Positions 4,453 to 47,440 of a stretch of 64,000 bases of DNA are shown here, piece by piece (the first letter of the stretch is position 1; each line of letters starts with the position of its first letter). The position numbers and the translations under genes were made by a program. The DNA lies in NCBI GenBank assembly GCA_964359755.1, contig CAYHUB010000001.1, positions 39,797 through 103,796 of the forward strand, written 5' to 3'. This DNA comes from an uncultured Candidatus Saccharibacteria bacterium. GTDB taxonomy: Bacteria; Patescibacteriota; Minisyncoccia; GWC2-36-17; WO2-46-25. Under the pieces are notes generated by a model, which had not been told where the DNA came from, made no database searches, and worked only from the letters and a program-made list of their open reading frames with translations.

Positions 4453-5472
4453 ATGATACGAGTTGCGATCAATGGGTTTGGGAGAATAGGGCGCATGTTT
4501 TTTCGGGTCGGATTTCCCCGGGAAGAGTTGGAGATCGTTGCAATAAACGATCTGGGCGATATTGAAAATCTTGCGTATTTGCTAAGGCATGATTCGGTAT
4601 ACCGCGATTGGGGGCATGATGTGTCGGTGCACGAAGGGAAGCTGGTCGTGGACGGCAAAAGTATCGCATTTATTCAAGAAAAAGACCCGACAAAACTCCC
4701 ATGGAAAGATCTTGAAATTGATGTTGTGGTGGAATCAACCGGCCTTTTTGAAACATTTGAGAAGGCGAAGGTGCATGTGGTCTCAGGAGCAAAGCGCGTG
4801 GTTATTTCCGCGCCGGCAAAAGACGATGAATGCGACGATGCAAAAACGGTCCTGATGGGTATGAATGAAGATGAACTTGAAAACATCAGCGTCAGTTCAA
4901 ATGGTTCGTGTACGACCAATTCCGTGCACCCCGCTATACAGGTGCTGAACGAAACGATCGGCGTGAAGAAGGCGATGCTTACGACGGTGCACGCGTATAC
5001 GGCAACGCAAAAGCTGGTGGACGGCCCCGATAAAGGCGATTGGCGCAGAGGACGCGCTGCGGCACAGAACATTTCGCCCTCAACTACGGGAGCCGCGATC
5101 GCGGTGACGCGCGTCGTGAAGGAATTGCAGGGAAAATTCGACGGTATTGCGGTGCGGGTGCCGGTGATATCCGGCTCGCTTTCAACCGTTGTGTTTCTTG
5201 CGGCTCGTCCGACCAGTATTGAAGAAGTGAACGAAGCGCTCACAAAAGCGGAACAAACCGCGCGCTGGAAAGGCGTATTTAAAACCACAACCGATCCGCT
5301 CGTATCCTCCGATATCATCGGCATACCGTATGCCTCGCTTGTCGATTGTTCGCTTACGAAGGTCATTGATGGCGATCTGGTAAGCATCGGCGCGTGGTAT
5401 GATAATGAAATGGGGTACACGCATATGCTGGTTGAGCATGTGATCAAATCGGGAGCATACGCGAAGAAATAA
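4453..5472 (+). CDS. gap: glyceraldehyde-3-phosphate dehydrogenase, type I
   Basis: INGFGRIGR NAD-binding motif. SNGSCTTNS active-site block with the catalytic Cys. TTVHAYTATQK and AAQNISPSTTGAA blocks. Confidence 0.92.
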   Translation: MIRVAINGFGRIGRMFFRVGFPREELEIVAINDLGDIENLAYLLRHDSVYRDWGHDVSVHEGKLVVDGKSIAFIQEKDPTKLPWKDLEIDVVVESTGLFETFEKAKVHVVSGAKRVVISAPAKDDECDDAKTVLMGMNEDELENISVSSNGSCTTNSVHPAIQVLNETIGVKKAMLTTVHAYTATQKLVDGPDKGDWRRGRAAAQNISPSTTGAAIAVTRVVKELQGKFDGIAVRVPVISGSLSTVVFLAARPTSIEEVNEALTKAEQTARWKGVFKTTTDPLVSSDIIGIPYASLVDCSLTKVIDGDLVSIGAWYDNEMGYTHMLVEHVIKSGAYAKK

Positions 5473-5487
5473 TCAAAGAATAAAAAT

Positions 5488-5766
5488 ATGTTCGACAGCT
5501 ACCACTACTACATCTTTATTCTTCTATTGCTGTTTTGTATTTTACTGCTCGTGTTTAACAGTTTTGTGGTGCACCATTATTTTATTGACATCATTTCTGG
5601 CATCCTGCCATTTATTCCGATAGCCGGGTTTTTGTATCATCTGCGTTTTCAGGACGGAACGGTGATTCCGTTTTATGTGCTGTTTTGCGCTTTGCTTGCG
5701 GCGTATGTTGTCGTGTTTGCCGGTATGAAGATATATGCGATATTTAATCCTTCAGAAGGAATATGA
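5488..5766 (+). CDS. small hydrophobic membrane protein (about 3 TM helices), function unknown
   Basis: 92 aa, highly hydrophobic. 4-bp ATGA overlap with rpiB suggests translational coupling. Confidence 0.45.
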   Translation: MFDSYHYYIFILLLLFCILLLVFNSFVVHHYFIDIISGILPFIPIAGFLYHLRFQDGTVIPFYVLFCALLAAYVVVFAGMKIYAIFNPSEGI

Positions 5767-6233
5767 TCATTTATCTTGGCGCCGACCACGCGGGATTCGC
5801 GCTGAAGCAAAAAACGAAAGAATTTTTGGAAAGCGAAGGGTATGAGGTCGCGGATATGGGCGCGTATGCAAACAACGATGGCGACGACTACCCTGAGTTT
5901 ATTGCGGCGGCGGCACAAGCGGTCGCCAACGACCTTATTAAAGGCGTTGATTCGCGCGGGATCATTTTCGGCGGGTCGGGGCAAGGCGAGGCAATGGCGG
6001 CAAATCGCATTCACGGCATTCGCGCGGCGGTATTTTACGGCCCCTCGACTTCGCTCAGGACAGGCGGCCCGCTTGAAATAATAAAACTTTCACGAGAGCA
6101 TAATGACGCAAATATGCTTTCGATCGGTGCGCGGTTTGTTTCCGAGCAGGAAGCGCTTGATGCGGTGAAGCTGTGGCTCGACACCCCGTTTTCCAACGAA
6201 GAACGGCACAGAAGAAGGATAATGAAGTTCTAA
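5763..6233 (+). CDS. rpiB: ribose-5-phosphate isomerase B
   Basis: N-terminus MIIYLGADHAGFALKQK matches the RpiB/LacAB signature. Size is 156 aa. Confidence 0.88.
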   Translation: MIIYLGADHAGFALKQKTKEFLESEGYEVADMGAYANNDGDDYPEFIAAAAQAVANDLIKGVDSRGIIFGGSGQGEAMAANRIHGIRAAVFYGPSTSLRTGGPLEIIKLSREHNDANMLSIGARFVSEQEALDAVKLWLDTPFSNEERHRRRIMKF

Positions 6234-6396: not shown

Positions 6397-7053
6397 ATGA
6401 TAGAAATTGTTCCGGCGATCATTGCACGCGATAGCGAAGAAGTGAAGCAGAAGCTTGCGCTTATTGAGGGCGCGGTTGAGTGGGCGCAGATCGATGTAAT
6501 GGACGGCGTGTTCACGCCGCCGGTGACCTTCAATGACCCAGCTGCGTTGCGCGATATTACGACCACAGTACGTCTCGAAGCGCACTTGATGGTGGCGCAT
6601 CCGGAGAATGTTATTGATGCATGGATCAATTCGCCTGTTGCGCGTATTTTACTTCACTACGAATCAACAACGCCTGAAAAATTGGCGGAGCTTGCCGCAA
6701 AGGTCAGTGCCGCCGGCAAAGAGGTTGGTATTGCGCTTAAACTGGAAACCCCGATCTCTGTCTTAGACCCTTTGTTTCAAATTTCAAGCTTCACGTTTCA
6801 GGTAGTACAGCTGATGGGCATCGCCGAGATCGGGTATCATGGGCATCCATTTGATGAGCGCGTGCTCGACAAAATCCATGCGTTGCACGAGCACTATCCT
6901 AATGTTATAATAGCGGTTGACGGTGGTGTAAGTTTGGAAAACGCCGGTACAATTTTAGAGGCGGGCGCTCCTTGTTTGGTTGTCGGAAGCGCAATTTTTA
7001 AAAGCGATAACGCGAAAGAAACGATTAAGAAATTTCAATCTGCAGTTCTATAA
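6397..7053 (+). CDS. rpe: ribulose-phosphate 3-epimerase
   Basis: QIDVMDGVFTPPVTF, AHLMVAHPE and C-terminal DGGV...LVVGSAIF blocks typical of Rpe. Confidence 0.85.
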   Translation: MIEIVPAIIARDSEEVKQKLALIEGAVEWAQIDVMDGVFTPPVTFNDPAALRDITTTVRLEAHLMVAHPENVIDAWINSPVARILLHYESTTPEKLAELAAKVSAAGKEVGIALKLETPISVLDPLFQISSFTFQVVQLMGIAEIGYHGHPFDERVLDKIHALHEHYPNVIIAVDGGVSLENAGTILEAGAPCLVVGSAIFKSDNAKETIKKFQSAVL

Positions 7054-7968: not shown

Positions 7969-8950
7969 TATGGACACACTCAATCCGAAATTGTTCGATA
8001 AAGACGTAGAACAGCTTCCTATCCGCAAAGGATACGGCGACGGCTTGTTGCAGGCGGGGAAGGAAGATGAGCGGATTGTGGCGCTGTGCGCCGACCTGAC
8101 CGGCTCGACGATGACGAGCGTGTTTTCCAAAGAATTTCCGAAACGATTCGTGCAAATGGGCATCGGCGAACAATCAATGGCATCGGTCGCTTCCGGCATG
8201 GCGGCGATGGGGAAAATTCCGTTTCTCGCTTCGTATGCGATGTTTTCGCCCGGGCGCAACTGGGAACAGATTCGTACCACGATCTGCTACAATGATTCTA
8301 ATGTGAAAATTGCGGGCGCGCATGCGGGCGTTTCCGTGGGGCCTGACGGCGGCACGCATCAGGCGGTTGAGGATATTGCGATCACGCGGGTCATCCCGCG
8401 CATGACGGTTATTGTGCCATGCGACGCCATTGAAGCGAAAAAGGCGACGCTTGCGGCGGCAAAAATGACAGGCCCGGTGTATATACGGCTTGCGCGCGAA
8501 GCAACGCCGGTCATCACTACGGAAGCAACACCGTTTGCCATCGGGAAAGCACAGCTATTTTTCACGCCGAAGGAAAAAGCGCAGGTTGGCATTATCGCGG
8601 TCGGCGCGCTTGTCTATAATGCTATTATTGCGGCGCGTGAGCTCGAAGCGGAAGGAGTATATGCAACAGTAATGAATCTCGGCACCGTGAAGCCGATCGA
8701 TAAAGAGGCGGTTGTTGCGCTTGCAAAAGAAGCGGGTGCATTAGTGACGGTAGAAGAACACCAAGTTGCGTGCGGCGTCGGGTCTGCGGTCGCGGAAGTT
8801 CTTGTACAGCATCGTCCAGTGCCGATTGAATTTGTCGGCGTGCGGGATACGTTCGGTCAATCGGGAGAGCCCAATGAGCTTATTGAGCATTACGGCATGG
8901 GGGTGAGTCATATTAAGGACGCGGTGAAGAGAGTAATAGGAAGGAAGTAA
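7961..8950 (+). CDS. transketolase, C-terminal (pyrimidine-binding plus C-terminal domain) subunit
   Basis: MGIGEQSMASVASGMA and HAGVSVGPDGGTHQAVEDIA blocks. 8-bp overlap with the N-terminal subunit gene. Confidence 0.88.
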   Translation: MNNMDTLNPKLFDKDVEQLPIRKGYGDGLLQAGKEDERIVALCADLTGSTMTSVFSKEFPKRFVQMGIGEQSMASVASGMAAMGKIPFLASYAMFSPGRNWEQIRTTICYNDSNVKIAGAHAGVSVGPDGGTHQAVEDIAITRVIPRMTVIVPCDAIEAKKATLAAAKMTGPVYIRLAREATPVITTEATPFAIGKAQLFFTPKEKAQVGIIAVGALVYNAIIAARELEAEGVYATVMNLGTVKPIDKEAVVALAKEAGALVTVEEHQVACGVGSAVAEVLVQHRPVPIEFVGVRDTFGQSGEPNELIEHYGMGVSHIKDAVKRVIGRK

Positions 8951-17815: not shown

Positions 17816-19480
17816 TTAATACGGCACGGAGAATACCGCGTGCGGAGTGAGTATATATATTTCTTTGCGGTCGGAAGAGACCGTGAAATCAACAATGTCT
17901 CTCAGCGTTCCTAAAAGATATTTTTCCACCATCTCGTTTTTTTGTTTCGGCATTTTGATTATTTTATTTCCTCCTTCCACTTTATAATCGGCATCGTTAT
18001 AGATACGGGTATTTTGGGATGAACTGACTGCAAGCGTCTTTTGGAGCGTTTTTATCACGTTCGTAAGCGATTTATCCGTAAGAGAAAAGAGAAGTGCTGA
18101 TCGCTTCGTATCATTGAGCATGTATACTTCGCCATTTTGCATGAACATTCTTTCGATCTCAAAATCGGTAGGTGCTTGAGTGAGAAATGTGTACGACCCC
18201 TCATGTGTTTGTTTTGATAGTGTATAGAATATGGATGGCTCGTTTCCGAAAATATAAATAAAATCATTATCGTCGAAGATAAAATGCGGCTGAAAGCGGA
18301 TAGAAGAGGTTGGTATCTTTCCTCGGTATACCGGTTGCACAATGTGAATGCCTGTCAAGAGATTTATTTTCACTTCTATTTCATACGCAATTTTTTGCGC
18401 GAGAGAGCCGAAAAGAAAAGAAGGAATCATGCGCAGGGCGTTATCCCGGGCTTCATGAAGCAGTGCGAAAGCAGCGTATTTGTCGTCTGCTTTATCTGCG
18501 GAGGTTATTTTCCTTTGTATGCCGTCCATAAATGCGATTTGTGTTTTGAGGAATGCGTAGCTACTGCCTCCAACGATAAAAATAAGCGCACTGGCAAGAA
18601 AGATCAATAAGTTTCTTTTATGAAGCGGGGCTTTGGAGTATATAGTTATTTTTTTACGAAAATCTCTGAATGAGAGCGTACGTAGCATGGCAAACACACG
18701 TAACATGCGTTTCATAAATGTGCCAATGCCGGTGAAACGTCCTTGCGCGCTGACAGCAACGCTCATCTTTGTCCCTGATTTTTTGCCGAACGGAAGCCAT
18801 GTTGTTTTTGCGCTTGCGATTGTAAGAAGGATAAGCGCTTGCGCGGGAAGCGGGATCTCCCGCGCATTTTTTTGGTATATCTTGCCAATGATATCCGCCT
18901 GCTCGTCGAGCGAAAGCGCAAACAGCTTCTCAATGCCTTTTTCAGAAAAAAGATCAATGGTCTTTTCAGTGCTAAAAATAAATTTGTCATCAAGGGCGAC
19001 ATTGCCGGTGATCACTGCGGAAAAAAGTTCACGCGTACTTTTGTGCTTATACTTCTTCGCCATATCAACGACTTCGTTTTCGCGGTACAGAAAGGTAATA
19101 ATATTTCCGAATTTTGAAAGGCGGATCGCTTCGCCCGCAATATTTATCACGCAGAAATGCGCGTCCTCAAGCACGCCTTCGTTTGCCTTCCCGATGTCAT
19201 GGAGCGTTGCATTCGCTTTTTTAAGCGCGTTCTCAAAGTGAAGCTCCGCATTCGCATCATCGAGTTTATAAAATTCACGCTTAATAACCGATGCGACGAG
19301 ATTCGGCAGAAATTCAAATTCGCTCTTCCGATTTTCGAGCCGGCCTATGATATAGAGATTTCCAAGGCGTTCCTCCTCAATGTTTGACGGTTCATAGACG
19401 AATGTTTCGGTGCCGCCGCCCTCTTTTCCCTGTTTGAGGATGAGTTCCTTTGTGCCGATCGTAAAATGAGTTGATTCCAT
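17816..19480 (-). CDS. hypothetical membrane protein (554 aa; N-terminal soluble domain, central TM helix, C-terminal domain)
   Basis: Long ORF with a TM segment LLIFLASALIFIVGGSSYAFL. No confident family match. Confidence 0.55.
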   Translation of the reverse strand: MESTHFTIGTKELILKQGKEGGGTETFVYEPSNIEEERLGNLYIIGRLENRKSEFEFLPNLVASVIKREFYKLDDANAELHFENALKKANATLHDIGKANEGVLEDAHFCVINIAGEAIRLSKFGNIITFLYRENEVVDMAKKYKHKSTRELFSAVITGNVALDDKFIFSTEKTIDLFSEKGIEKLFALSLDEQADIIGKIYQKNAREIPLPAQALILLTIASAKTTWLPFGKKSGTKMSVAVSAQGRFTGIGTFMKRMLRVFAMLRTLSFRDFRKKITIYSKAPLHKRNLLIFLASALIFIVGGSSYAFLKTQIAFMDGIQRKITSADKADDKYAAFALLHEARDNALRMIPSFLFGSLAQKIAYEIEVKINLLTGIHIVQPVYRGKIPTSSIRFQPHFIFDDNDFIYIFGNEPSIFYTLSKQTHEGSYTFLTQAPTDFEIERMFMQNGEVYMLNDTKRSALLFSLTDKSLTNVIKTLQKTLAVSSSQNTRIYNDADYKVEGGNKIIKMPKQKNEMVEKYLLGTLRDIVDFTVSSDRKEIYILTPHAVFSVPY

Positions 19481-28743: not shown

Positions 28744-29367
28744 ATGAAGATTTTTATTGATTTTGATGGAGTGATATTTGATGCAAAAAAGTTTAAAAAC
28801 GCGCTCGCGCGCATCTGTGCAAAGAATGGTATGGTAAGAAAAGATTTTTTTCATATCTATGCGCTCGCGAAGGAGAACGGAGAAGTGTATTCGGTTTCGC
28901 ATCATCTTCGCTTGTTGGCAAGGCATGCGAAGAACCGTATACAAAAGAAAACATTGCGCATAGCGATTGATCGCCTCATGAGCGATCTTCGCTCGTATGT
29001 TTTTAAGGACGTATTTCGTTTTTTCGATCGGATGCATAAGCACGATCTTTATTGTGTATCGTTCGGGGATCCCGCGTTTCAGAGGCGAAAGATCGAGGGA
29101 AGCGGCGTAAAGCGATATTTTAAACGCGTTATTGTGACGCGCGGTGATAAAGGAAAAGAGATCGCTGCATTATGCAAAAAGAACAGTACATCTGATGAAC
29201 AGATCGTTTTTGTTGATGACAGTGAAAAGCATATTCGCGAAGTTCGAAGCATTAAAAATGCTGTGATCATTCATTTGTGTAGAGGTAAAAACGTCCCGAG
29301 ATCTCCGAATGCGGATTATCGCGTATCTACACTTGCACAGGCAACTCGTGTTATTCTGTCTTTATGA
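28744..29367 (+). CDS. HAD-superfamily hydrolase-like protein
   Basis: N-terminal FIDFDGVIFD (DxD motif I) and later VFVDDS (motif IV-like). Confidence 0.55.
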   Translation: MKIFIDFDGVIFDAKKFKNALARICAKNGMVRKDFFHIYALAKENGEVYSVSHHLRLLARHAKNRIQKKTLRIAIDRLMSDLRSYVFKDVFRFFDRMHKHDLYCVSFGDPAFQRRKIEGSGVKRYFKRVIVTRGDKGKEIAALCKKNSTSDEQIVFVDDSEKHIREVRSIKNAVIIHLCRGKNVPRSPNADYRVSTLAQATRVILSL

Positions 29368-34957: not shown

Positions 34958-35299
34958 TTACTTTCGAAACACGATGTGTGTTATGAAATTCACCGCGCTG
35001 ACAAGCAGCGTCGCGAGAAAAAGCGCTCCGACACTTGCAATACTCATGTGCGGGAGGAGAAGGTCGGTGACCCATAGCACCCCCATATTGATGACCACAA
35101 TGAAAAGTCCTAAGGTAAGCAGAATGATCGGCCCCAGTAGTAATTTAAGCAGCGGTTTGAGGAAGAAATTTGCCGCAGAAAATACAAGTCCGACGATGAG
35201 TACGCTCTGCCACCCTCCGCTGATCGTTACCCCCGCGATATAATACGAAGCAAGGAATAACGCCAGTACATTTCCAAAGACAAGGGCGATTAATCTCAT
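34958..35299 (-). CDS. DUF360/YvlD-like membrane protein (phage-holin-4 superfamily)
   Basis: 113 aa, 3-4 TM helices, FLKPLLKLLLGPIILLTLGLFIVV pattern. TATAAT sits 8 nt upstream of the ATG, with no SD. Confidence 0.6.
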   Translation of the reverse strand: MRLIALVFGNVLALFLASYYIAGVTISGGWQSVLIVGLVFSAANFFLKPLLKLLLGPIILLTLGLFIVVINMGVLWVTDLLLPHMSIASVGALFLATLLVSAVNFITHIVFRK

Positions 35300-35351
35300 T
35301 GGGGTCTATTATAGCATAGGGAAATAAAAAAAACAATAGAGAGCAGAGGAA

Positions 35352-35384
35352 TAAAAAATCCCCCGTAGACCATTGTCTACGGGG
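35352..35384 (-). terminator. rho-independent terminator of the 65-aa gene (perfect 10-bp stem ccccgtagac/gtctacgggg)
   Basis: On the minus strand the hairpin is followed by TTTTTTATT. Confidence 0.75.
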
Positions 35385-35437
35385 AGCTGCGTTAGCGAGG
35401 TAATCTTTTTAGGTTTGACGGCATGATTTTCATTCTC

Positions 35438-35635
35438 CTACGATTTTGCAAGAATAAGCGCCAATTTTTCTACGTTTTTTTCCGACAAGGTAAATCCAGA
35501 AATCTCTGTATTAAACCTCCCACGGTCAATCATTTCCTTCATGATAACGAGAACTTCGTGGTCCTTCTCGTTCTCCGCTTCAAACTCAATTAAAAACGAG
35601 CCTGTTATTGGAATACGTACTAGCATTGCCTTCAT
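35438..35635 (-). CDS. small monocistronic protein, 65 aa, unknown function
   Basis: Consensus promoter TTGACA-N17-TATTGT. AAGGAGGT SD 5 nt before the ATG. Own terminator. Confidence 0.7.
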   Translation of the reverse strand: MKAMLVRIPITGSFLIEFEAENEKDHEVLVIMKEMIDRGRFNTEISGFTLSEKNVEKLALILAKS

Positions 35636-35690
35636 GTCATACCTCCTTTTGATTTATTTGTAAAAGTTCTCTGCCTCAATAGTAGCGCGT

Positions 35691-35719
35691 ACAATAGTGT
35701 GTTTTTTGGAAAGTGTCAA
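35691..35719 (-). promoter_or_regulatory. near-consensus sigma70 promoter (TTGACA-N17-TATTGT) for the 65-aa gene
   Basis: -35 at 35714-35719 and -10 at 35691-35696, read on the minus strand. Confidence 0.6.
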
Positions 35720-35787
35720 CTGTTTTTGTGATAAAATAAAACAGAGCGGTGAATTTTTCACCGCTCTGAATGTTGTGTGATTTTACA

Positions 35788-35979
35788 TCACTTTTTCCGC
35801 TTTTTGAAGTTATCTACTCCTTTTTCAAAAGCATCTCTCCTCTCTGCGTTGTTACTATGATCGCCAATCATTTGGCCTCTGTGCTGAAGGTGAAAAAGTC
35901 CCGCACCCTCGCTTTCTTCCTTCGCCCATTTTTGACCAGCTTCATACAAATCTTCTTTTTCTTCACTCTTAATACTCAT
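35788..35979 (-). CDS. small hydrophilic protein, 63 aa (MSIKSEEKEDLYEAGQKWAKEESEGAG...), unknown function
   Basis: AGGAGGTG SD 7 nt upstream of the Met at 35979; the ORF-track start at 36033 is probably too long. Downstream hairpin terminator at 35741-35768 followed by TTTATTTT. Highly charged, no TM. Confidence 0.65.
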   Translation of the reverse strand: MSIKSEEKEDLYEAGQKWAKEESEGAGLFHLQHRGQMIGDHSNNAERRDAFEKGVDNFKKRKK

Positions 35980-36166
35980 TGCAATCACCTCCTTTCTTCG
36001 GAAGAATCGCGCTTGGCAGATTTTAATAAACATCTGCGGCTAGATATGTATAGTACATATCTTAGGGGCTGCATATATGTATATCAGATCTGCTTTATCT
36101 TGTCAAATTTTTAGGTTAATGATTCCACGCTAATAGAGGTAGAGAGCTTTTTTGTACACGATGCAT

Positions 36167-36195
36167 TTTACAAGGAACTAAAAAATTGATAATAT
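36167..36195 (+). promoter_or_regulatory. promoter TTTACA-N17-TAATAT ending 7 nt before the dcd ATG (leaderless-type)
   Basis: -35 at 36167-36172, -10 at 36190-36195, ATG at 36203. Confidence 0.45.
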
Positions 36196-36202
36196 ACGAA
36201 AC

Positions 36203-36775
36203 ATGATTTTATCAGACAGAGACATCAAGTTATACATCAAGGAAGGCGGGCTGGGGTTCAAGCCGAAACTGAGCGAGGATCAGATTGGACCGGCATCGAT
36301 TGACCTGAAGCTCGGAAATATCTTCAAATTATTCCGTCCGGAACGGTATTTGAGTTTGGACGTAAAAAAAGGCATCCCGGTTGAGTACTTGGAAGCAGTT
36401 ACCGTGAAAGACGGGGATCCGTTTATTTTGCATCCGCATATGTTCGTCCTTGCCGCGACAAAGGAGTATGTCACTATCCCCGATGATATTTCAATGAAAG
36501 TGGAGGGAAAAAGTACACTCGGGCGCATGGGGCTTTTGGTGCATACCGCGGGGTTTATTGATCCGGGATTCGAGGGGCATATCACGCTTGAGCTTTCCAA
36601 TCAGGCAAATTTGCCGATCACCATTTACCCGGGGATGTATGTCTGCCAGGTGGATTGCCAAATGATGTCGAGCCCCGCGGAAGTTCCGTACAACAAGAGA
36701 AAGAAATCCATTTATTCGAAGCAAAGAGGTCCTACCGCGCCGAATACAAAAAACTTATTTGAGCATAAAGGATGA
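36203..36775 (+). CDS. dcd: dCTP deaminase
   Basis: MILSDRDIKLYIKEG N-terminus and beta-barrel dUTPase-like fold motifs. 190 aa. Confidence 0.85.
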   Translation: MILSDRDIKLYIKEGGLGFKPKLSEDQIGPASIDLKLGNIFKLFRPERYLSLDVKKGIPVEYLEAVTVKDGDPFILHPHMFVLAATKEYVTIPDDISMKVEGKSTLGRMGLLVHTAGFIDPGFEGHITLELSNQANLPITIYPGMYVCQVDCQMMSSPAEVPYNKRKKSIYSKQRGPTAPNTKNLFEHKG

Positions 36776-36841: not shown

Positions 36842-38566
36842 TTACTTCAGAGGAATTCCCGTGCCGCCGCGGGCAAAGATATATGCCGGCGTCGTATTTG
36901 CGCGGGAAAGCTTTTCCCACCACGGATATGCTCTGCGCATATGCCGTTCCATCGCGAGAAAGATCTGGCGCACTTCGTGGTTCACGGAGAATTTGCTCCG
37001 TTGCCAGTTGCAAAATTCGATTTCAAGCATATTTGAAGCAAGCAGGAAGCCGATCATATTGCCCAATGAAAGCGGATATTGCATGAGCTCATCCGGAACG
37101 CCCTTTTCCTTCATTTCCGTATACAGCGCGAGGTTCGCGGCATGTATCTTTTCAAATGCTTCCGTAAGCGCGGCAGGCGCTTGCTTGTCGTAGCGGTAAA
37201 ATCCAAGCAGGGGAGTGACATACGTACGCAGATGCGTGCAGAATCCCTGCCGCTGGACGTCGCGCCATCCGCGGAATGTTATCATTCCGGCAAATGAGGC
37301 GCTTGCGAGCTCAAATTCGTTCGGGAGCTTGTCGTATTCTCCTCTCGGCGTTTCAAGGAGTTTGCCGACAACATCCGCAAACGCTATACAGTGTTCGTAC
37401 CCGATCTTTCGTGAGAATGCGCGATAGATCGTTTCTTCAGCTATTGCCGGGCTGTCCATAACCACGACCGCGTCAATTTCTGCTAATGCGTCATTTCCTG
37501 CAAACGGGGCGGTCGAAAGATATTTCCATGATTCCTGCTTCCATGCGCTCGCCTCGGTGTGGCGGATGAATTGGTCAACGCCTGTTTTTTTTGCCTCGAC
37601 GAGAATCTCGTCCACCAGCGCGATATTTTCCGGCGTGTTGTCGAGTATGAGGTGCCGGATAAGCTCCTGGAGCCCTTCGCCCGATACATTCACGCCGACG
37701 GAAGTTTGGGTACCGCAAGGCAAGAAATTACCCAGCACGTCGCACGTTTCGCCGATCACGCCGCTTTCAAGGTCTTTCTCGTTTCCCGCAAACAATGCGC
37801 CGTACTGTTTCCGTAGAAACTGCGGGAACGGACCGGTGAATTTTTCGCCTTCAAGGTCGGTGTAGAACGAAAACGCTCCGTCCATGACATCCTGCACTTT
37901 TTTCTCGTCTACGCCGTACGTGGCAAGCTCCTTGTGTATCGGGTAGTAGCCGCGCTTGCTCATATCAACGTAGCGGGTAGAAAGCTCGATATAGCCGGCG
38001 CCGGGACGGCCCCATTCGAGCGATTTTGCCGCAAGCGCGGAGATCTGTTCAAAGCATATCCATATCGCGCCCATACGCGCGATGGAGTTGTGGCCGTACG
38101 CGTCGAGCCAGCGCTTCATGAACCGCATGATCTTTTCCGCGTGCGTGAGCTCCTCAAGGAATTTCGTGTCCACGCGCACCGCATCGCGAAATGCTTCCCA
38201 TGCTTTTTTTGTTTCTGACGAGTGCGCGACGAACGCGTCGAACGATGTGATGTTGTGATGCTTGAGAAATTGCATACCATCGCCGCCAAACTTCTCTGCG
38301 GTTTCTTTCAGCATGCTTGCGAGCATCTCCGGCATGAAGTTGTCCGCGAATATACCGCGCAAACCCCGCGGATTTTTCATGCGCGAGAACATGGACAACA
38401 GCGCCGTTCCGATGCTTTGCGGAAGCGTGTGCATCAGATACACTTTTTTTTCCGTGTTTGTGAAAAACGGAGCAAGCAATTCCTGCTCGAGTTTCGTGAA
38501 CGAATAGACCGGTGTTGCAACGAACGATCGTGCGTGTGCGAGTGCTGATTTTGGGTACGTATGCAT
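36842..38566 (-). CDS. tandem-duplicated ThyX-like (flavin-dependent thymidylate synthase fold) protein, 574 aa, with degenerate RHR motifs
   Basis: The C-terminal half aligns by eye to ThyX: GVPDE...PLSLGN...NMLEIEFCNWQRSKFSVNHEVRQI...AYPW versus ThyX GVPRE..LPLNL...NFLNLRADSHAQWEIQQ...CPW. The N-terminal half carries YIELSTRYV (ThyX YNELSGRY) and LPCGTQT...IRH. The canonical R-H-R is replaced in both halves. AGGAGG SD 7 nt upstream. Confidence 0.65.
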   Translation of the reverse strand: MHTYPKSALAHARSFVATPVYSFTKLEQELLAPFFTNTEKKVYLMHTLPQSIGTALLSMFSRMKNPRGLRGIFADNFMPEMLASMLKETAEKFGGDGMQFLKHHNITSFDAFVAHSSETKKAWEAFRDAVRVDTKFLEELTHAEKIMRFMKRWLDAYGHNSIARMGAIWICFEQISALAAKSLEWGRPGAGYIELSTRYVDMSKRGYYPIHKELATYGVDEKKVQDVMDGAFSFYTDLEGEKFTGPFPQFLRKQYGALFAGNEKDLESGVIGETCDVLGNFLPCGTQTSVGVNVSGEGLQELIRHLILDNTPENIALVDEILVEAKKTGVDQFIRHTEASAWKQESWKYLSTAPFAGNDALAEIDAVVVMDSPAIAEETIYRAFSRKIGYEHCIAFADVVGKLLETPRGEYDKLPNEFELASASFAGMITFRGWRDVQRQGFCTHLRTYVTPLLGFYRYDKQAPAALTEAFEKIHAANLALYTEMKEKGVPDELMQYPLSLGNMIGFLLASNMLEIEFCNWQRSKFSVNHEVRQIFLAMERHMRRAYPWWEKLSRANTTPAYIFARGGTGIPLK

Positions 38567-39444: not shown

Positions 39445-40667
39445 CGTGACGTAAGTTCGCGTACTGCGCTTTTTGTTTTTTCTTTTTGTTCGTCGGTCGG
39501 GTTTTTGAGCGTATCTGCGATGAGCTTGCCGATAACTTTCATTTCCGCTTCTTTCATGCCTCGCGCGGTGAGCGCCGGCGTGCCAAGACGGATACCCGAC
39601 GGGTCTGCGGGTTTGCGCGTGTCAAACGGGATCATATTGAAATTTGCGTAGATATCGCACTCGGCAAGCGCGTCCGCGCCTTGCTTGCCTGAAATACCAA
39701 GCCCTGTGCAATCAATGATCATTAAATGCGTATCGGTGCCGCCTGATACGAGGCGCAACCCTTCGCTCATCAGCGCTTCTGCGAGCACTTTTGCATTTTT
39801 TACGATCTGTTGTTGATATTTTTTATACTCGTCCGTCATCGCTTCTTTAAAACATACCGCTTTTGCCGCGATAATGTGCTCAAGCGGACCGCCCTGCATG
39901 CCGGGGAACACCGTTTTGTCGATCTGTTTTGCAAATTGCTCTTTGCATAAAATAATGGCACTACGAGGACCGCGCAGTGTTTTGGTGGTTGTGGTCATGA
40001 CGACATCATGCGTTGGCACAGGACTTTCGTGCACACCCCCGACGACAAGCCCTGCGATGTGCGACATATCCGCCATCGCGTATGCCCCGACCTCTCGCGC
40101 AATTTCAGCGAAGCGCGAAAAGGGGACTGCTCGAGGATATGCGGTGAAGCCCGAAACAATAAGTTTCGGCTTTACTTCCCGCGCAAGCGCCGCAACTTTA
40201 TCCATATCCAATACTTCCGTGTCTTGCTCAACGCCGTAATGTACAAAGTTAAACAGTTTTCCCGAAAGCGACACGGGGTGGCCGTGCGTGAGATGACCGC
40301 CATGCGAAAGGTTCATCGCTAAAATAGTATCGCCCGGTTCAAGGAGCGCGAAATAACACGCGAGATTCGCCTGCGAGCCGGCGTGCGGCTGGACATTCGC
40401 GTGTTCCGCACCGAATAACGCTTTTGCGCGGTCAATGGCAAGCTGTTCTATCTGGTCGATATACTGAGCTCCCGTGTAGTAGCGTTTGCCCGGATACCCT
40501 TCGGCGTATTTATTGGTGAGTACCGTCCCTGCGGCCTCAAGTACCGCGTCAGATGCGATGTTTTCAGATGCGATCATTAAAAGCCCTTCCTGCTGGCGCT
40601 TTTCTTCCTGCGCGATAAGCGCATCGAGTTCGGGGTCAACCTGTGGCAGATGATGTCGTGGGATCAT
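39441..40667 (-). CDS. glyA: serine hydroxymethyltransferase
   Basis: LIASENIAS...[14 protein letters not shown] and PLP-lysine region. Start moved to the internal Met ([14 protein letters not shown]); the ORF-track start at 40745 overlaps the upstream gene. Confidence 0.9.
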
Positions 40668-40738
40668 TGTGTATATAGTACGACAGAGCGCCTCTACAGT
40701 GCAAATTCTGTATAAGCATCGCGGGGCAGGAACGATCT

Positions 40739-42763
40739 TTACCACAAAAATACTTCCAATTTCACTTCAGCATCATACGTATCGCTACTTTCAGCTCCGG
40801 AATATGCTTCGGTTATTTTTGATCCTATAAATATCAATTTCCATTTCGGGCCGCCTCGATAACCAACCTCCGCGCTGATCTTTTCAGACGAGGGAATAAA
40901 TCTTTCGTATTCTGATGTTGCTTTTTCATAGCCCAATTCACCCTTCCATTTCTCGCTGGCAACGCCACCTTTAATTTTAATTTTTTTACCCCAATCAAGC
41001 TCGCTCCCCGCCGCTTCTAAATTTAAAACTTGCACCTCATTGACCTTTACTCCTGTTCCAACGGTGAATGTTTTTGCCACCTCTTTTATTATTGGATCCT
41101 GGTTCTGGAAATCATTTTTTTGTTCGCGAAACATTTCCTGTGCACCGATATAAAATTTCCCGGTTTCGGAAGGATTGATATATATCAACCTCATTCCCGC
41201 CCCAGCTTCACTCATGTTACTCATAGTTCCAATTCCTATTTCTTCATCAAGCGGCAAACTCAAAGCTCCCTGAAAAGTCGCGCCAAAATTCAATATAAAT
41301 TTCCCGTAATCTTCTTTGGTAAATGCATGACTGTCTATGTAATCTGCCGCCAAGCGGGTGATAATTTCATCTTGCGCAACATTGCCTCCATATAAATCTT
41401 TTATGTTCATATGCACTACGGTCGCATCTGCCTCAAATCCAAGCCTCTCGCTTTTTACATTCAATCTCCCCCGTAAGGCGTTCAAATCTTCTAATGATTG
41501 ATATGGATTATTGTTAAAATCCTGAAAATTAAAATATGCCACGGCAAAAGTATCTTTGTTTAATTTGATTTCTTTGACTTCCGGGCTTACGTTGATCTCA
41601 AGTCCTCTTTCTTTTTTAAGCTCACCGCTTGAAAGTTCTCCTTCCAGTCTTTCCGCTGTTTCTTCAATTCCCGCCGCTTTTTCAACTACCTCCTGCGCGC
41701 GACTTTTCACTGGAAATAGCACTTCTTTTTCATTACTAACGAAGGAATGAAATGTCGCTACTGACCTATGGTATCGCTCTGCAACACCAAGAGCCTCCGG
41801 ATATTTCTCTGTGTCAGTTAGTATTAAGGTCCCATAATCACTAAAACCTATTTTCCTTTTCCCGTTAATATCCAGAGCAAATCCAGACCAAACATGTCCG
41901 CCCTGCTCGGTAGAGCCGTTTTGTAGCCATGCTTCCAATCCAAGACTTTTGGCTATTTTTGTCAAAAAAGTATGAATATTGCCGCAGATGCCAGTTCTGG
42001 TGATTTTTCCTGTCATTAATAACTCTCTGAGCGCAGAAAACATTGCGTCATCAGAAATTTCGATATGTTGATTTTTCTCAAGCATATCGAAGTTATAGGT
42101 TCGTCCAAGTGCATTCCCTATATATTGTAAAACTAGGGTTTTTTGATCATCGCTTAATTTATTCTTTTCACCGGATAATGCAGTAAAAAACTCCTTGGAA
42201 TTATTTGATTGAAATATAGAATTCAATTCCGTATCTATCGCACTGTCAAATTCTTGGTGTGAAAGATCTTTATAAAAATCAGAGCCGATCATGGTATTGT
42301 AACCATTAGCCTGTATTGCTTCCGGCCTTCCTTTTGGTATTTTCTCAAATTCACCACTAACAGAGATCTCTATCTTGTCGGCGAACTTCTCCCAATCAAA
42401 CGGCGCAAACTCGTCTTTTTTGTCGGAAGCGATCATTTTTTCAAATAACTCCTGCGGGGATAGCTTTTCTATTGTTGTTTCTTCTATCTGGTTTTCCGGA
42501 GACAATTTCCCCTTGTTTATTTCCTCCTTCTTAAGTCCCTCGGCAAAAGTAGATGCTGCGCTCGTAACTATCGAAAGCGCCGCGAGGCAAGCGACGGCCT
42601 CCTTTTTAAATTTCTCCGGCACTAATTTCATTAAAAAACCCTCGGTTTCTTTTTGGATGACCGATTCCTTTTCGTTAAAATCTTCAAAGATCGCCTCTTT
42701 TTCTTCCGGCGAAGTCTCTTCTTCGAGATATTCCTTTTCGAGTTCGAAATTATTTTCAGACAT
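40739..42763 (-). CDS. large envelope protein with a transglutaminase-like Cys-His-Asp core (DUF3857/TGase/DUF3858-like architecture), in an AT-rich island
   Basis: Acidic N-terminus then TM helix ([19 protein letters not shown]). TGase-like core G-I-C-G-N...GGHVWSGF...D. Beta-rich C-terminus ending in F-L-W. Local GC about 38-42%, against about 52% in the flanks. Confidence 0.6.
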
Positions 42764-42770
42764 AGTAGTA

Positions 42771-43046
42771 TTATTCTATTTCCTTCATCAGACCATGTAT
42801 CTCCTTGTGTTCCAGATCCAAAATTTCTTCCGCCAAATCTTTTGTCGGGTTTTTTGCAAATTCAATCTTCTTTTTGAGCAAATTCACAAATAGACCGATC
42901 TTATCCGGAAATCCCAAAAAAATCCCCATCAACTGCTGTCTTTTTTGAAAAGAAAAAGAACTCAAAAAATCACGGACCAATTGCTGGTTTTCGCTTGATA
43001 TGCCCGGGCTATCTATAACATTTTTTAATTCGCTCCAGTCTTTCAT
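42771..43046 (-). CDS. hypothetical 91-aa protein, co-oriented 8 bp upstream of the TGase-like gene
   Basis: ORF in the same AT-rich block, probably co-transcribed. Confidence 0.4.
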   Translation of the reverse strand: MKDWSELKNVIDSPGISSENQQLVRDFLSSFSFQKRQQLMGIFLGFPDKIGLFVNLLKKKIEFAKNPTKDLAEEILDLEHKEIHGLMKEIE

Positions 43047-43092
43047 ATGTTTAAAATGCTACCACGCGCGTTTACACAGCGCAAATTCTGCG

Positions 43093-44376
43093 TTATTTCA
43101 GAAATTCTTTACTTCGTACCTTTCGATGATATGAAACAGCAAACCGATGCGCTTCGTCGCGGACACGCTGGATGAATAATGCACACTCATTTCCCAACCG
43201 CGAAGAAGGGAGCGGGCGCGCAGACGACGGGGTATATATTTCTTCCTCTCGTTTTGCGATCGCAAACACAAGCTGGTTGGCGGGGAGCACAGCGCGCGCC
43301 GCGGAAAGCTGTCCTTTGCCGCCATCGATAATAATGAGGTCCGGCTTTTGCCATTCCGCATGCTTCATACGGCGGCTCATAATCTCATGCATCATTTTCG
43401 GGTCATTGGGTTCGTCTCCGGAATATCTGATTTTGAACCTGCGATATTCGTTTTTGTTCGGCGCGCCGTTTTTAAATACAACCATCGAGCCGACCGCATG
43501 CTTTCCGCCGATGTTTGAAATGTCATATCCTTCAACGCGGCTGATCAGGCGCGAGGTGGCGAGAAACTTCTGAAGAGACCCCTGTATTTTTTTCCATTCC
43601 GCGGTATCAGACTCGGTGCGCAGGGCAAATCGCTCGAGTGCCGGGCGATGCGCGAATATTTTTTGCAGATAAATAATTTTGCGTTTGAGTTCCTCCGCAT
43701 CTTGAAATCGCTCTTCTATAGCGGCGCGTTTCATGTCTTTTTCCAGTTTCCTCATGATCTGTTGGCGCTTACCGCTTAAGATGCGCGCGATCGCCTGAAT
43801 ATTTTTTTTTGTTTGCGCACGCGCCGAGGGGTACGCGCACGCGCCGAGGCATTTCCCGAGGTGATAATCAAAGCACGGTTTTTGCGACGGTCGCGCGGTG
43901 CAGTACGGGTAGATACGGCGCATATTTCGCAATGTTTGTTTGAGCGCCGCGCCGTCGGTAAATGGTCCGATGACCTTCAGGTCGCGCTGAAGCAGGGTAA
44001 GTTTTTTATCTCGTTCCGGCTGATGGGTGATGAATATGCGCGGATATTCTTTTTCAGCGGTGATGCAAGTGTAGTGATAGCTTTTGTCGTCGCGAAAGAC
44101 AACGTTGAATTTCGGGCGATATGCTTTAATGTAGTGCGCCTCCTCAATGAGCGCGTCGATCGCGGATACGCATACCTTCCATTCTATGTGCGCGATCTCT
44201 TTGTGCAGCGCGGCGAGCTTGGGGGATCGTTCTGTAGTGCGCGCAAAATACTGGCGTACTCTGTTTTTGAGAACGCTTGCCTTGCCGACGTAGATCACCT
44301 CATCCTTTTTATTTTTGAAAAAGTAAATGCCGGGCGCTGGGGGAAGCTTTTGCAGTTGGCGCGCGATTGTTTCCAT
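43093..44376 (-). CDS. uvrC: excinuclease ABC subunit C, short form (GIY-YIG, UvrBC-interaction and RNase-H-like domains; no C-terminal HhH)
   Basis: PGIYFFKNKKDEVIYVGKA...LKNRVRQYF GIY-YIG signature. C-terminal DEAHRFAVSYHR. Confidence 0.75.
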   Translation of the reverse strand: METIARQLQKLPPAPGIYFFKNKKDEVIYVGKASVLKNRVRQYFARTTERSPKLAALHKEIAHIEWKVCVSAIDALIEEAHYIKAYRPKFNVVFRDDKSYHYTCITAEKEYPRIFITHQPERDKKLTLLQRDLKVIGPFTDGAALKQTLRNMRRIYPYCTARPSQKPCFDYHLGKCLGACAYPSARAQTKKNIQAIARILSGKRQQIMRKLEKDMKRAAIEERFQDAEELKRKIIYLQKIFAHRPALERFALRTESDTAEWKKIQGSLQKFLATSRLISRVEGYDISNIGGKHAVGSMVVFKNGAPNKNEYRRFKIRYSGDEPNDPKMMHEIMSRRMKHAEWQKPDLIIIDGGKGQLSAARAVLPANQLVFAIAKREEEIYTPSSARPLPSSRLGNECALFIQRVRDEAHRFAVSYHRKVRSKEFLK

Positions 44377-47007: not shown

Positions 47008-47208
47008 ATGGCAAAAATAGAGCTCATTGAAAATACCTGCACAATACGCAAGATGACTTTAGAGTCAAAGGAAGCATGTTTGCTTGACAACTGCGCACGC
47101 GAGCAAGCGTGTCCTGGCAAGAACAATCGCCGTGACAACGATTTCATCTGCAATTTGCAGGAATTACTGTCACTCTACAAGAGAGCGGCAGAGAGAAACA
47201 AAGAATAA
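47008..47208 (+). CDS. small Cys-rich protein, 66 aa (Cys at 11, 24, 28, 34, 47), unknown function
   Basis: Strong SD AGGGGGAGGTG 6 nt before the ATG. Own weak hairpin and T-run terminator. Confidence 0.55.
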   Translation: MAKIELIENTCTIRKMTLESKEACLLDNCAREQACPGKNNRRDNDFICNLQELLSLYKRAAERNKE

Positions 47209-47240
47209 AAGCCCAAAAAAAGGCTTTTATTTCTTTTTAA
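47207..47240 (+). terminator. weak rho-independent terminator after the Cys-rich peptide gene
   Basis: aaagcc/ggcttt stem followed by tatttcttttt. Confidence 0.45.
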
Positions 47241-47440
47241 AATTGACATCTTATAAGGGTTTTTGTACGATAGACCTACTGCGCAATAACCTTTCTGCTG
47301 CAATCCCTATATTTCGGCTGCGACTTCACAAAAATTTTTCACCATATACAGCGTATATGCTTCGAAATTCTTGTTTTGTCTCGCTCGAAATCTAATGATT
47401 TCGCTACGAAAATTATTACGCAGTCGGTCTATTCTTTGGT

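Follow-up and report, generated by a model that had tools for sequence, protein, structure and literature searches.

A two-gene cassette between uvrC and glyA of a Candidatus Azambacteria lineage encodes a predicted transglutaminase-type domain joined to a predicted porin-like barrel

The 64-kb stretch of DNA analyzed here, which we call the window at its full length, carries between uvrC and glyA two co-oriented genes for proteins of 674 and 91 amino acids (aa), together referred to as the cassette (Table 1). Homologs of the uvrC protein place the window lineage, an ultra-small groundwater bacterium, in Candidatus Azambacteria. Both open reading frames (ORFs) described in the original prediction were recovered, and so was their placement, with Pfam domains assigning both neighbors; only the gap between the two genes had to be corrected, to 7 nt instead of 8. 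Beyond glyA follow folD and a long ThyX-like gene, and beyond uvrC lies a MacB-type ABC pair. The automatically chosen glyA ORF starts at a GTG codon at position 40745 and thereby overlaps the stop codon of the large gene; judging from a 408-aa orthologue in the closest relative, the true start is likely the ATG at position 40667. No paralogs of the cassette genes were found elsewhere in the window, and an Rfam search over the whole window returned two tRNAs only, with no riboswitch or other RNA at the cassette.

The cassette had been described as an AT-rich island of 38-42% GC in flanks of about 52%, and this description stands. GC content in 500-nt windows is 0.37-0.42 over positions 40750-43250 and 0.49-0.55 in both flanks, while the cassette as a whole has 0.396 compared to 0.487 for the remainder of the window. 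At third codon positions (GC3), the large and small genes have 0.378 and 0.424, respectively, compared to 0.54-0.63 for six neighboring genes. The automatically chosen ORFs of the window have a mean GC3 of 0.525 with a standard deviation of 0.059, and the large gene has the lowest value among all those of at least 200 aa. The AT-richness is real and resides in synonymous positions, beyond amino-acid content alone.

Table 1. Features of the cassette and its immediate surroundings, in positions of the window
Feature	Position	Strand	Remarks
uvrC	43093..44376	(-)	GIY-YIG and UvrC_RNaseH domains (Pfam)
Upstream direct repeat CAGAATTTGCGCTGT	43076..43090	(-)	in the 46-nt spacer between uvrC and the small gene; overlaps the -35-like TTTGCG
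91-aa ORF (small gene)	42771..43046	(-)	co-oriented, upstream of the large gene
Spacer between small and large gene	42764-42770		7 nt
674-aa ORF (large gene)	40739..42763	(-)	stop codon included
Acidic N-terminal extension, residues 1-48	42620..42763	(-)	pI ~4.4; invariant E33; low confidence in the structure model
Signal-peptide-like segment, residues 49-74	42542..42619	(-)	K-rich n-region (K51, K53-55); h-region with invariant A62
Acidic linker, residues 75-121	42401..42541	(-)	length varies among homologs; predicted disordered, pLDDT <50
Predicted transglutaminase/papain-fold domain, residues 122-386	41606..42400	(-)	from structure model, motifs and fold comparison
Catalytic candidate Cys260	41984-41986	(-)	
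Catalytic candidate His290	41894-41896	(-)	
Catalytic candidate Asp309	41837-41839	(-)	
Predicted porin-like antiparallel beta-barrel, residues 387-674	40742..41605	(-)	~16 DSSP strands
Segment with divergent allele relative to L006	40711..42330	(-)	nucleotide identity 53-87% per 90-nt window, mostly 53-79%
Downstream direct repeat CAGAATTTGCACTGT	40696..40710	(-)	in the spacer before glyA; overlaps a -35-like element
glyA (SHMT, serine hydroxymethyltransferase)	ends 39441	(-)	on the downstream side of the cassette

The family of the large protein is small and sporadic. Among 5.8 billion clustered proteins we found 43 homologs over the full length (640-700 aa; 36-69% identity). All of them come from Patescibacteria/Parcubacteria metagenome-assembled genomes, and Pfam domains are recorded for none. 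When 1.84 billion representatives were searched with a profile, only 174 proteins were returned, at E-values up to 1e-3. Scanning one genome per GTDB species for the sequence pattern returned 16 loci, which are labelled Niyogibacteria, Jorgensenbacteria, Brennerbacteria, Azambacteria, Paceibacterota or 'Parcubacteria group', with four labelled uncultured Candidatus Saccharibacteria and one Candidatus Pacearchaeota archaeon. Neither cassette protein is matched in NCBIfam, PADLOC or PHROGs or significantly matched in Pfam, in line with the earlier description of proteins of this architecture as functionally uncharacterised, and searches against PDB sequences (one single-sequence, two profile) gave chance-level matches only.

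The full-length AlphaFold2 (AF2) model of the large protein, built on an alignment of the 43 sequences, has a mean predicted local distance difference test score (pLDDT) of 78.9 and a predicted template modelling score (pTM) of 0.77, with pLDDT above 90 for most of residues 130-674. It divides the protein into a low-confidence segment (residues 1-121), a mixed alpha/beta segment (122-386) and a segment of about 16 long antiparallel strands (387-672). The N-terminus is acidic, as predicted, with a pI of 4.4 over the first 55 residues. The one transmembrane (TM) helix of the original prediction corresponds to the single hydrophobic segment, residues 56-74, but this segment looks more like part of a cleavable Sec signal peptide. 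A K-rich n-region is followed by the hydrophobic stretch, a short h-region, and by a conserved A-S-S-A-F-A motif that ends at A74, with E or G as the next residue. Such an n/h/c layout with an A-x-A site points to a Sec signal peptide placed behind an unusually long extension. Cleavage appears more likely than a stable TM anchor, the alternative being a signal-anchor TM helix. A lipoprotein anchor was rejected on the grounds that no conserved Cys follows the signal region.

The transglutaminase-like Cys/His/Asp core proposed for the large protein is supported by the AF2 fold and by the conservation of the triad. The candidate residues lie in the motifs GICGN (Cys260), GGHVWSGF (His290) and FSDY (Asp309). 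In the model, a helix (260-273) begins with Cys260, and of the two strands that follow, the first, a long one, carries His290 and the second Asp309. The model thus contains the core fold, with Cys at a helix N-terminus and an antiparallel sheet that bears His and Asp/Asn, and the predicted catalytic geometry is canonical. Fold matches (figures as listed) include TglA (8.4), the putative protease 3kd4 (8.2), vasohibin-1 (7.8) and vasohibin-2 (7.6), CPR-C4 (7.7), transglutaminase 3, transglutaminase 2 and factor XIII (7.0-7.8), as well as PNGase, arylamine N-acetyltransferases and PeiW; all listed matches belong to the transglutaminase/papain-fold thiol enzymes. The Pfam models to which the original prediction had pointed do not recognize the domain. 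Transglut_core (PF01841) aligns to residues 255-297 without significance (E 0.22; 12.2 bits at a cut-off of 23), and DUF3857 and DUF3858 gave no match. Among the 43 homologs, 11 match Transglut_core, all below threshold and with 7e-4 as the best E-value, and Pfam searches with ten distant homologs revealed no bridging Transglut_core match.

Proper alignment of the 43 homologs retains the catalytic candidates. Cys260 is invariant (43/43), G261 and N262 are found in 40/43 and 41/43 homologs, His290 in 39/43, and position 309 is occupied by Asp in 27, Asn in 12 and Thr in four sequences. The resulting triads are C-H-D (27/43), C-H-N (12/43) and C-D-T (4/43), and the four sequences with His replaced by Asp are exactly the four with Thr309. 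This coupled loss of His and Asp/Asn is what a functional His-Asp pair predicts. The C-D-T sequences could also be taken as a sign that the large protein is a non-enzymatic structural protein, with a barrel and a degenerate protease-fold cap that would serve as a pore or as a wall/S-layer anchor, and with the triad as a relic. Many distant homologs indeed fail the simple pattern G.C[GSNA]., though at least two of them, P0106 and P0126, keep the Cys. Against this reading stand the invariant Cys260 within a nearly invariant GICGN, the preservation of His and Asp/Asn in 39/43 homologs with loss only of both together, and the presence of Cys, His and Asp/Asn in the very distant homologs from Peregrinibacteria and a Woesearchaeota-binned contig; we consider it very unlikely.

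For the C-terminal part, the original prediction of a beta-rich region ending in F-L-W can be made more specific, in that residues 387-674 are predicted to form a porin-like barrel of about 16 strands. Family-averaged hydropathy shows an alternation of hydrophobic and polar positions along most barrel strands. The protein ends with VFLW, whose last two residues, L673 and W674, are each shared by at least 90% of homologs, and the C-terminal residue of full-length distant homologs is mostly aromatic, mainly F. A Foldseek comparison with the PDB agrees with the AF2 picture and has the full-length autotransporter EstA (3kvn) among the best matches. At the sequence level, the large protein does not fall into a curated outer-membrane protein family; Porin_4 matches one of the 43 members (E 0.004), and DUF481 matches one distant homolog weakly.

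The match to EstA raises the possibility of a type V system, in which the barrel would translocate its own enzyme passenger for surface display or release. The domain order fits, with a long signal peptide, an N-terminal enzyme and a C-terminal barrel. However, the barrel has about 16 strands and not 12, neither a helical linker nor a POTRA domain is predicted between enzyme and barrel, and the Pfam autotransporter, ShlB and POTRA models match neither the large protein nor its homologs. Strand 130-140, N-terminal to the enzyme, is confidently placed in the full-length model and disordered in a model of the domain only. It probably packs against the barrel, without which it is not confidently predicted. 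This dependence and the pTM of 0.77 suggest that the enzyme is rigidly docked on the barrel as a single unit and is not a tethered passenger, and self-export of this kind seems quite unlikely.

The 91-aa partner has a pI of 5.7, no signal peptide, and the invariant residues F27, R36, K60 and E79; it is predicted to be a small cytoplasmic helical protein. It has no Pfam or PDB family match. Its 45 database homologs make a family of about the same size as that of the large protein, and many of them lie on contigs apparently shared with the large protein. The first four examples examined align over their whole length. In hidden Markov model (HMM) searches of 26 fetched loci, the partner gene directly precedes the large gene, in the same orientation, in 25. 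The two genes form an obligate operon that is restricted to the Parcubacteria family.

The two-domain architecture itself is older and more widespread than this operon. Using hhalign, the family was aligned to a Peregrinibacteria protein over 400 columns that cover both enzyme and barrel (probability 99.1%; motif GVCRDIS...GGHV...FVNW), and to a protein from a contig binned as a Woesearchaeota archaeon over 406 columns (probability 97.8%). The latter contig has archaeal-type neighbors of the TrmB and DUF483 types, and the link reflects either a protein that ultra-small symbionts share across domains or a mistake in binning. Both the distant homologs P0126 (L112:5574-7199) and P0106 (L111:5001-6962) have the enzyme-plus-barrel layout and keep Cys, His and Asp/Asn; the partner was not called upstream of either.

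Comparison with fetched contigs and loci (given L-numbers here) supports the horizontal acquisition proposed for the cassette. The closest relative, L006 from Hainich groundwater, has the gene order of the window, macB-abc-uvrC-[small and large gene]-glyA-folD-thyX, and its cassette has a GC content of 0.38 and GC3 of 0.342-0.345. Four further Azambacteria (L107, L108, L109 and L110) have uvrC proteins that are 75-85% identical and retain the upstream order recG-secDF-macB-abc-uvrC. In L107, L108 and L110 the junction is followed by glyA-folD-thyX-dcd and the cassette is absent; in L109, where the contig ends ~490 nt past uvrC, it is apparently absent. The cassette-free spacers between uvrC and glyA are 560-990 nt long with GC contents of 0.41-0.44 (L107:7291-8205, L108:7294-7938, L109:7291-7779 and L110:7363-7847), and each carries a small opposite-strand ORF (140, 95, 79 and 123 aa, respectively); these four ORFs are unrelated to one another and have no Pfam match. 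Gain of the cassette is placed in the ancestor shared by the window lineage and L006, and the uvrC-glyA junction is a general hot spot for variable cargo. A uvrC-based scan of JGI metagenome contigs found only relatives of at most 42% identity, none with glyA or the cassette nearby, and was uninformative for this junction. No homologs were found among the viral, phage and plasmid records of IMG/VR, INPHARED and PLSDB.

Elsewhere in the family the cassette occupies other neighborhoods. In L001 and L011 it lies between rpiB and rpe, which are adjacent in the window (5763-6233 and 6397-7053). It has yet other neighbors in L002, L004 and L009/L016; in L009 and L016 it lies between tRNA-Leu and tRNA-His. 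Over 26 loci, the GC content of the cassette ranges from 0.34 to 0.55 and usually equals that of the flanks, with strong negative deviations only in the window, L006 and L026. An intrinsic AT constraint on the gene was rejected since cassette GC tracks host GC in most genomes. In L026, another Azambacteria, an AT-rich block with the cassette lies between two tRNA-Ser(GGA) genes (4893-4979 and 8078-8166). These genes share their 3' ends and ~30 nt of downstream sequence but differ in their 5' parts, of which one is GC-rich and one AT-rich. Such an att-like duplication is what integration at the 3' end of a tRNA gene would leave behind; the interval between the two tRNA genes contains no integrase. 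As a separate observation on L001, its otherwise syntenic pentose-phosphate gene cluster has another small cargo, a Gp49/HTH (HigB/HigA-like) pair with a 104-aa ORF inserted between the two halves of split transketolase genes (L001:11634-12630).

In the window, the cassette is bounded by two copies of a 15-nt direct repeat that are identical at 14 of 15 positions. Within the 64 kb this repeat occurs only at the two cassette ends (at most two mismatches allowed; 0.37 chance matches expected). Boundary repeats are also found in L022 (15/15) and L021 (14/15). Promoter-like elements, which were read by eye and are tentative, coincide with both copies. Upstream of the small gene, a -10-like hexamer TAGCAT is located 18 nt past TTTGCG, and the ATG 9 nt past the hexamer. 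Upstream of glyA, TTTGCA is separated by 19 nt from TACTAT, and the proposed start codon follows after 10 nt. This spacing suggests very short or absent leaders for both genes. A promoter consensus scan of positions 40400-43400 detected no promoter-like site on the coding (-) strand, and the terminator-like sites on that strand were few and not above chance. The repeat may have arisen as a target duplication and supply a promoter at the same time, or it may be a stretch of promoter that was duplicated. Altogether, the low GC3, the absence of the cassette from syntenic relatives, the flanking repeat and the tRNA-Ser duplication in L026 support horizontal acquisition.

Comparison of the window to L006 revealed a second layer of exchange that is confined to a part of the large gene. 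Flanking proteins are 93-99% identical between the two genomes, and the partner is 96% identical. In the large protein, residues 1-80 are 90-100% identical, compared to 48-80% for the remainder and ~50-60% for the enzyme domain. Seven flanking genes show a synonymous divergence (dS, Nei-Gojobori) of 0.05-0.32, and the values for the small gene (0.14) and for codons 1-100 of the large gene (0.22) are similarly low. For codons 101-380 and 381-674 of the large gene, dS climbs to 1.26 and 1.42, respectively, at ratios of nonsynonymous to synonymous divergence (dN/dS) of 0.14-0.20. In 90-nt windows, nucleotide identity is 98-100% down to position ~42600 and 79-86% at 42330-42600, ahead of the divergent segment given in Table 1. 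At the downstream repeat it jumps from 68% to 100% (90-nt window 40621-40710, which sets the resolution), and this 3' breakpoint is sharp and coincident with the repeat. Positive selection in situ was rejected because dS itself is 4-25 times that of the flanks and dN/dS is 0.14-0.20. The exported part is an anciently diverged allele brought in by recombination, which is the behavior of exposed surface components. Apart from the cassette, the segment 43140-43770 of uvrC also alternates between 90-nt windows of 77-87% and of 96-100% identity to L006, a mosaic that suggests frequent homologous recombination in the population beyond the cassette.

A compact, AT-rich and mobile two-gene unit at a variable junction could in principle be a toxin-immunity or defence module, with the large protein as an antibacterial or antiphage effector and the 91-aa protein as its immunity protein or antitoxin. 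Transglutaminase/papain-fold domains are frequent in polymorphic toxins. However, the partner is 96% identical to that of L006 while the enzyme domain is only ~50-60% identical, the opposite of what is seen for co-diverging pairs, and PADLOC has no match for either protein; it is this lack of co-divergence, together with the empty PADLOC result, that disfavors such a module. The small gene also precedes the large one, the enzyme is fused to a large barrel and not to a delivery domain, dN/dS values of 0.14-0.20 correspond to ordinary purifying selection, and phage, viral and plasmid records contain no homolog. We regard a toxin-immunity module as highly improbable.

With moderate confidence, we favor the view that the segment 40696-43090 is a compact mobile two-gene operon of Parcubacteria whose large product is an enzyme of the cell surface, a thiol protease or a transamidase, kept in place by a membrane barrel. 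The operon would have been inserted into the uvrC-glyA spacer of a Candidatus Azambacteria lineage. The large protein would be exported via Sec, and its unusually long signal peptide would probably be removed, to leave a mature protein made of a flexible linker, a transglutaminase/papain-fold domain with a Cys-His-Asp(Asn) triad and a barrel of ~16 strands with an aromatic end. This barrel would embed in a lipid layer at the cell surface and so fix the thiol enzyme at one barrel mouth, where it may cleave or transamidate a protein or peptide of the surface or envelope or of a neighboring cell; the closest analogy would be an enzyme of the LapG type, LapG being a protease that cleaves an adhesin of the cell surface. 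The 91-aa partner would act on the cytoplasmic side, for instance on the large protein prior to its export, by attaching to the conserved N-terminal extension. Recombination swaps the exported part among strains, in keeping with an exposed position at the surface. The scheme builds on what the analysis shows, namely the ORFs and their composition, how the family is distributed, the conserved operon, the pattern of presence and absence, the repeats at the flanks, the diverged allele, the folds as predicted and the conserved triad. Its inferred elements are the cleavage of the signal peptide, the insertion of the barrel into a membrane and its location, the activity of the enzyme and its substrate, and what the partner does.

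Several observations weigh against this surface-enzyme scheme. The fold assignments are AF2 models built from 23-43 sequences, so that barrel closure, exact strand number and domain orientation are model-level features, and no curated HMM exceeds its threshold for either the enzyme domain or the barrel. Four of the 43 homologs lack both His and Asp, and catalysis may be dispensable in some members. Mobility is affected as well, given that the repeat overlaps -35-like elements and might stem from duplication of promoter sequence instead of the target site, and that only two genes lie between the repeats, with no integrase or mobility gene in or beside the cassette. Finally, members of the candidate phyla radiation (CPR)/Patescibacteria are described as monoderm (PMC8871954), so no outer membrane or barrel-assembly machinery (BAM) is known that would receive the barrel. 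Among the ORFs scanned in the 64-kb window, no outer-membrane gene and no gene for an Omp85/BAM insertase was found.

The same monoderm description (PMC8871954), which leaves the cell's own envelope without an obvious lipid layer for a barrel, is the starting point for a host-directed alternative. Here the large protein would serve as a pore or anchor, with its barrel inserted in the membrane of a host cell and its protease remodelling the host surface. The disordered linker of ~47 aa between the signal/anchor segment and the folded part would suit such a role, as would the two-domain homologs in Peregrinibacteria and on the Woesearchaeota-binned contig, both lineages of small episymbionts, and the swapping of divergent alleles of the exported part among close strains, as seen in host-interaction surfaces. 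On the other hand, monomeric 16-strand barrels normally require an assembly machine with access from the periplasm, and the Woesearchaeota contig could be mis-binned. We hold a host-directed function to be unlikely. A broader proposal covers Parcubacteria, Peregrinibacteria and possibly DPANN Woesearchaeota. In these supposedly single-membrane symbionts, the barrel-protease would be either planted in the host membrane as an attachment or nutrient conduit, or housed in an unrecognised outer lipid layer with its own barrel-assembly route; either way, the 91-aa factor and the extended signal peptide would amount to a new export pathway. This proposal, too, we consider improbable.

Relative to known systems, the surface-enzyme operon favored here combines familiar parts in an unfamiliar manner. 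Its likeness to LapG/BTLCP proteases (Peptidase_C93; PDB 4fgo) is one of fold only, with no Pfam or PDB sequence match. LapG is a free, LapD-regulated periplasmic protein of ~25 kDa in diderms, without a barrel or a 91-aa partner, and no LapD/LapA-type partner system was found at the cassette, whose neighbors are housekeeping genes. With regard to the transglutaminase-like superfamily (PF01841; TglA, TG2/TG3/FXIII, PNGase, the vasohibins and 3kd4 BDI_1141), every tested member of the cassette family stays below the Pfam gathering threshold, and the large protein has ~130 residues of extra helices before the core. CPR-C4 (PDB 7pjo; PMC9108980) belongs to a different family with no sequence match; it is a free-standing protein of 216 aa with a Cys-His-Leu(carbonyl) triad and a zinc site, and has neither a barrel nor a signal peptide.

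On the barrel side, the outer-membrane proteins with 16 strands (porins, PgaA, FhaC/CdiB and OmpM1) differ from the large protein, which has no membership in their sequence families, comes from a lineage considered monoderm, and carries an enzyme as its N-terminal domain instead of POTRA, SLH or TPR domains. It shares with the type V autotransporter EstA (3kvn) the order of signal peptide, enzyme and C-terminal barrel as well as an extended signal peptide, but has ~16 rather than 12 strands, no predicted pore-spanning helix, an apparently rigidly docked enzyme and no Pfam autotransporter signature. Neither the type Va layout (12 strands with a helical linker) nor the type Vd layout (POTRA with 16 strands) describes it. 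With small tRNA-targeting islands, the cassette has in common the compositional deviation, presence/absence among relatives, direct repeats and, in L026, the duplication of a tRNA-Ser 3' end. In contrast to such islands, it measures ~2.4 kb with two genes and no integrase, and its site in the window is a promoter-bearing spacer and not a tRNA gene. In the literature searched, we found no description of a beta-barrel in Patescibacteria, nor of a transglutaminase-like domain fused to a transmembrane-type barrel. Taken singly, the two folds are known ones. The libraries and literature searched contain no description of their fusion, of so strict a 91-aa partner or of this phyletic setting.

How CPR/Patescibacteria attach to hosts and take up material is a long-standing question, as their envelopes are thought to be without an outer membrane. 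A confidently predicted porin-like barrel, which is kept in several lineages of Parcubacteria and has homologs in Peregrinibacteria, rigidly joined to an enzyme with a conserved triad, in a mobile two-gene unit whose exposed part is swapped among strains, makes the predicted enzyme-barrel protein and its partner a concrete and clonable candidate for a surface or host-interface device. Two testable questions follow, namely whether the barrel resides in a membrane of these cells or of their hosts, and what the protease cuts. The analysis also defines two protein families without curated annotation, one of enzyme-barrel proteins of 650-700 aa and one of 91-aa partners, and cleanly illustrates, for a CPR genome, how an islet is inserted and an allele replaced.

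Several additional features were noted in the window. The uvrC gene encodes a short form of 427 aa with GIY-YIG and RNase-H-like domains, without the C-terminal helix-hairpin-helix of the ~600-aa homologs in other phyla; this truncation is common to all close Patescibacteria homologs. The ThyX-like protein (36842-38566) is unusually long at 574 aa, a length that is kept at 568-574 aa in all Azambacteria relatives. It matches the Thy1 model in two stretches and may have arisen by duplication or fusion of a flavin-dependent thymidylate synthase. An ORF of 554 aa at 17816-19480 (-) has a GC content of 0.43, below that of its surroundings, no Pfam match, and a hydrophobic segment near residue 300. 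Further low-GC patches were found at 2134-2562, 47084-47395, 28744-29367 and 35250-36250. They include two small ORFs without a Pfam match (GC3 of 0.336 and 0.385), a HAD-like hydrolase (GC3 of 0.409) and a mostly non-coding stretch of ~1 kb with a GC content of 0.38-0.39, and they may represent additional small acquired pieces.

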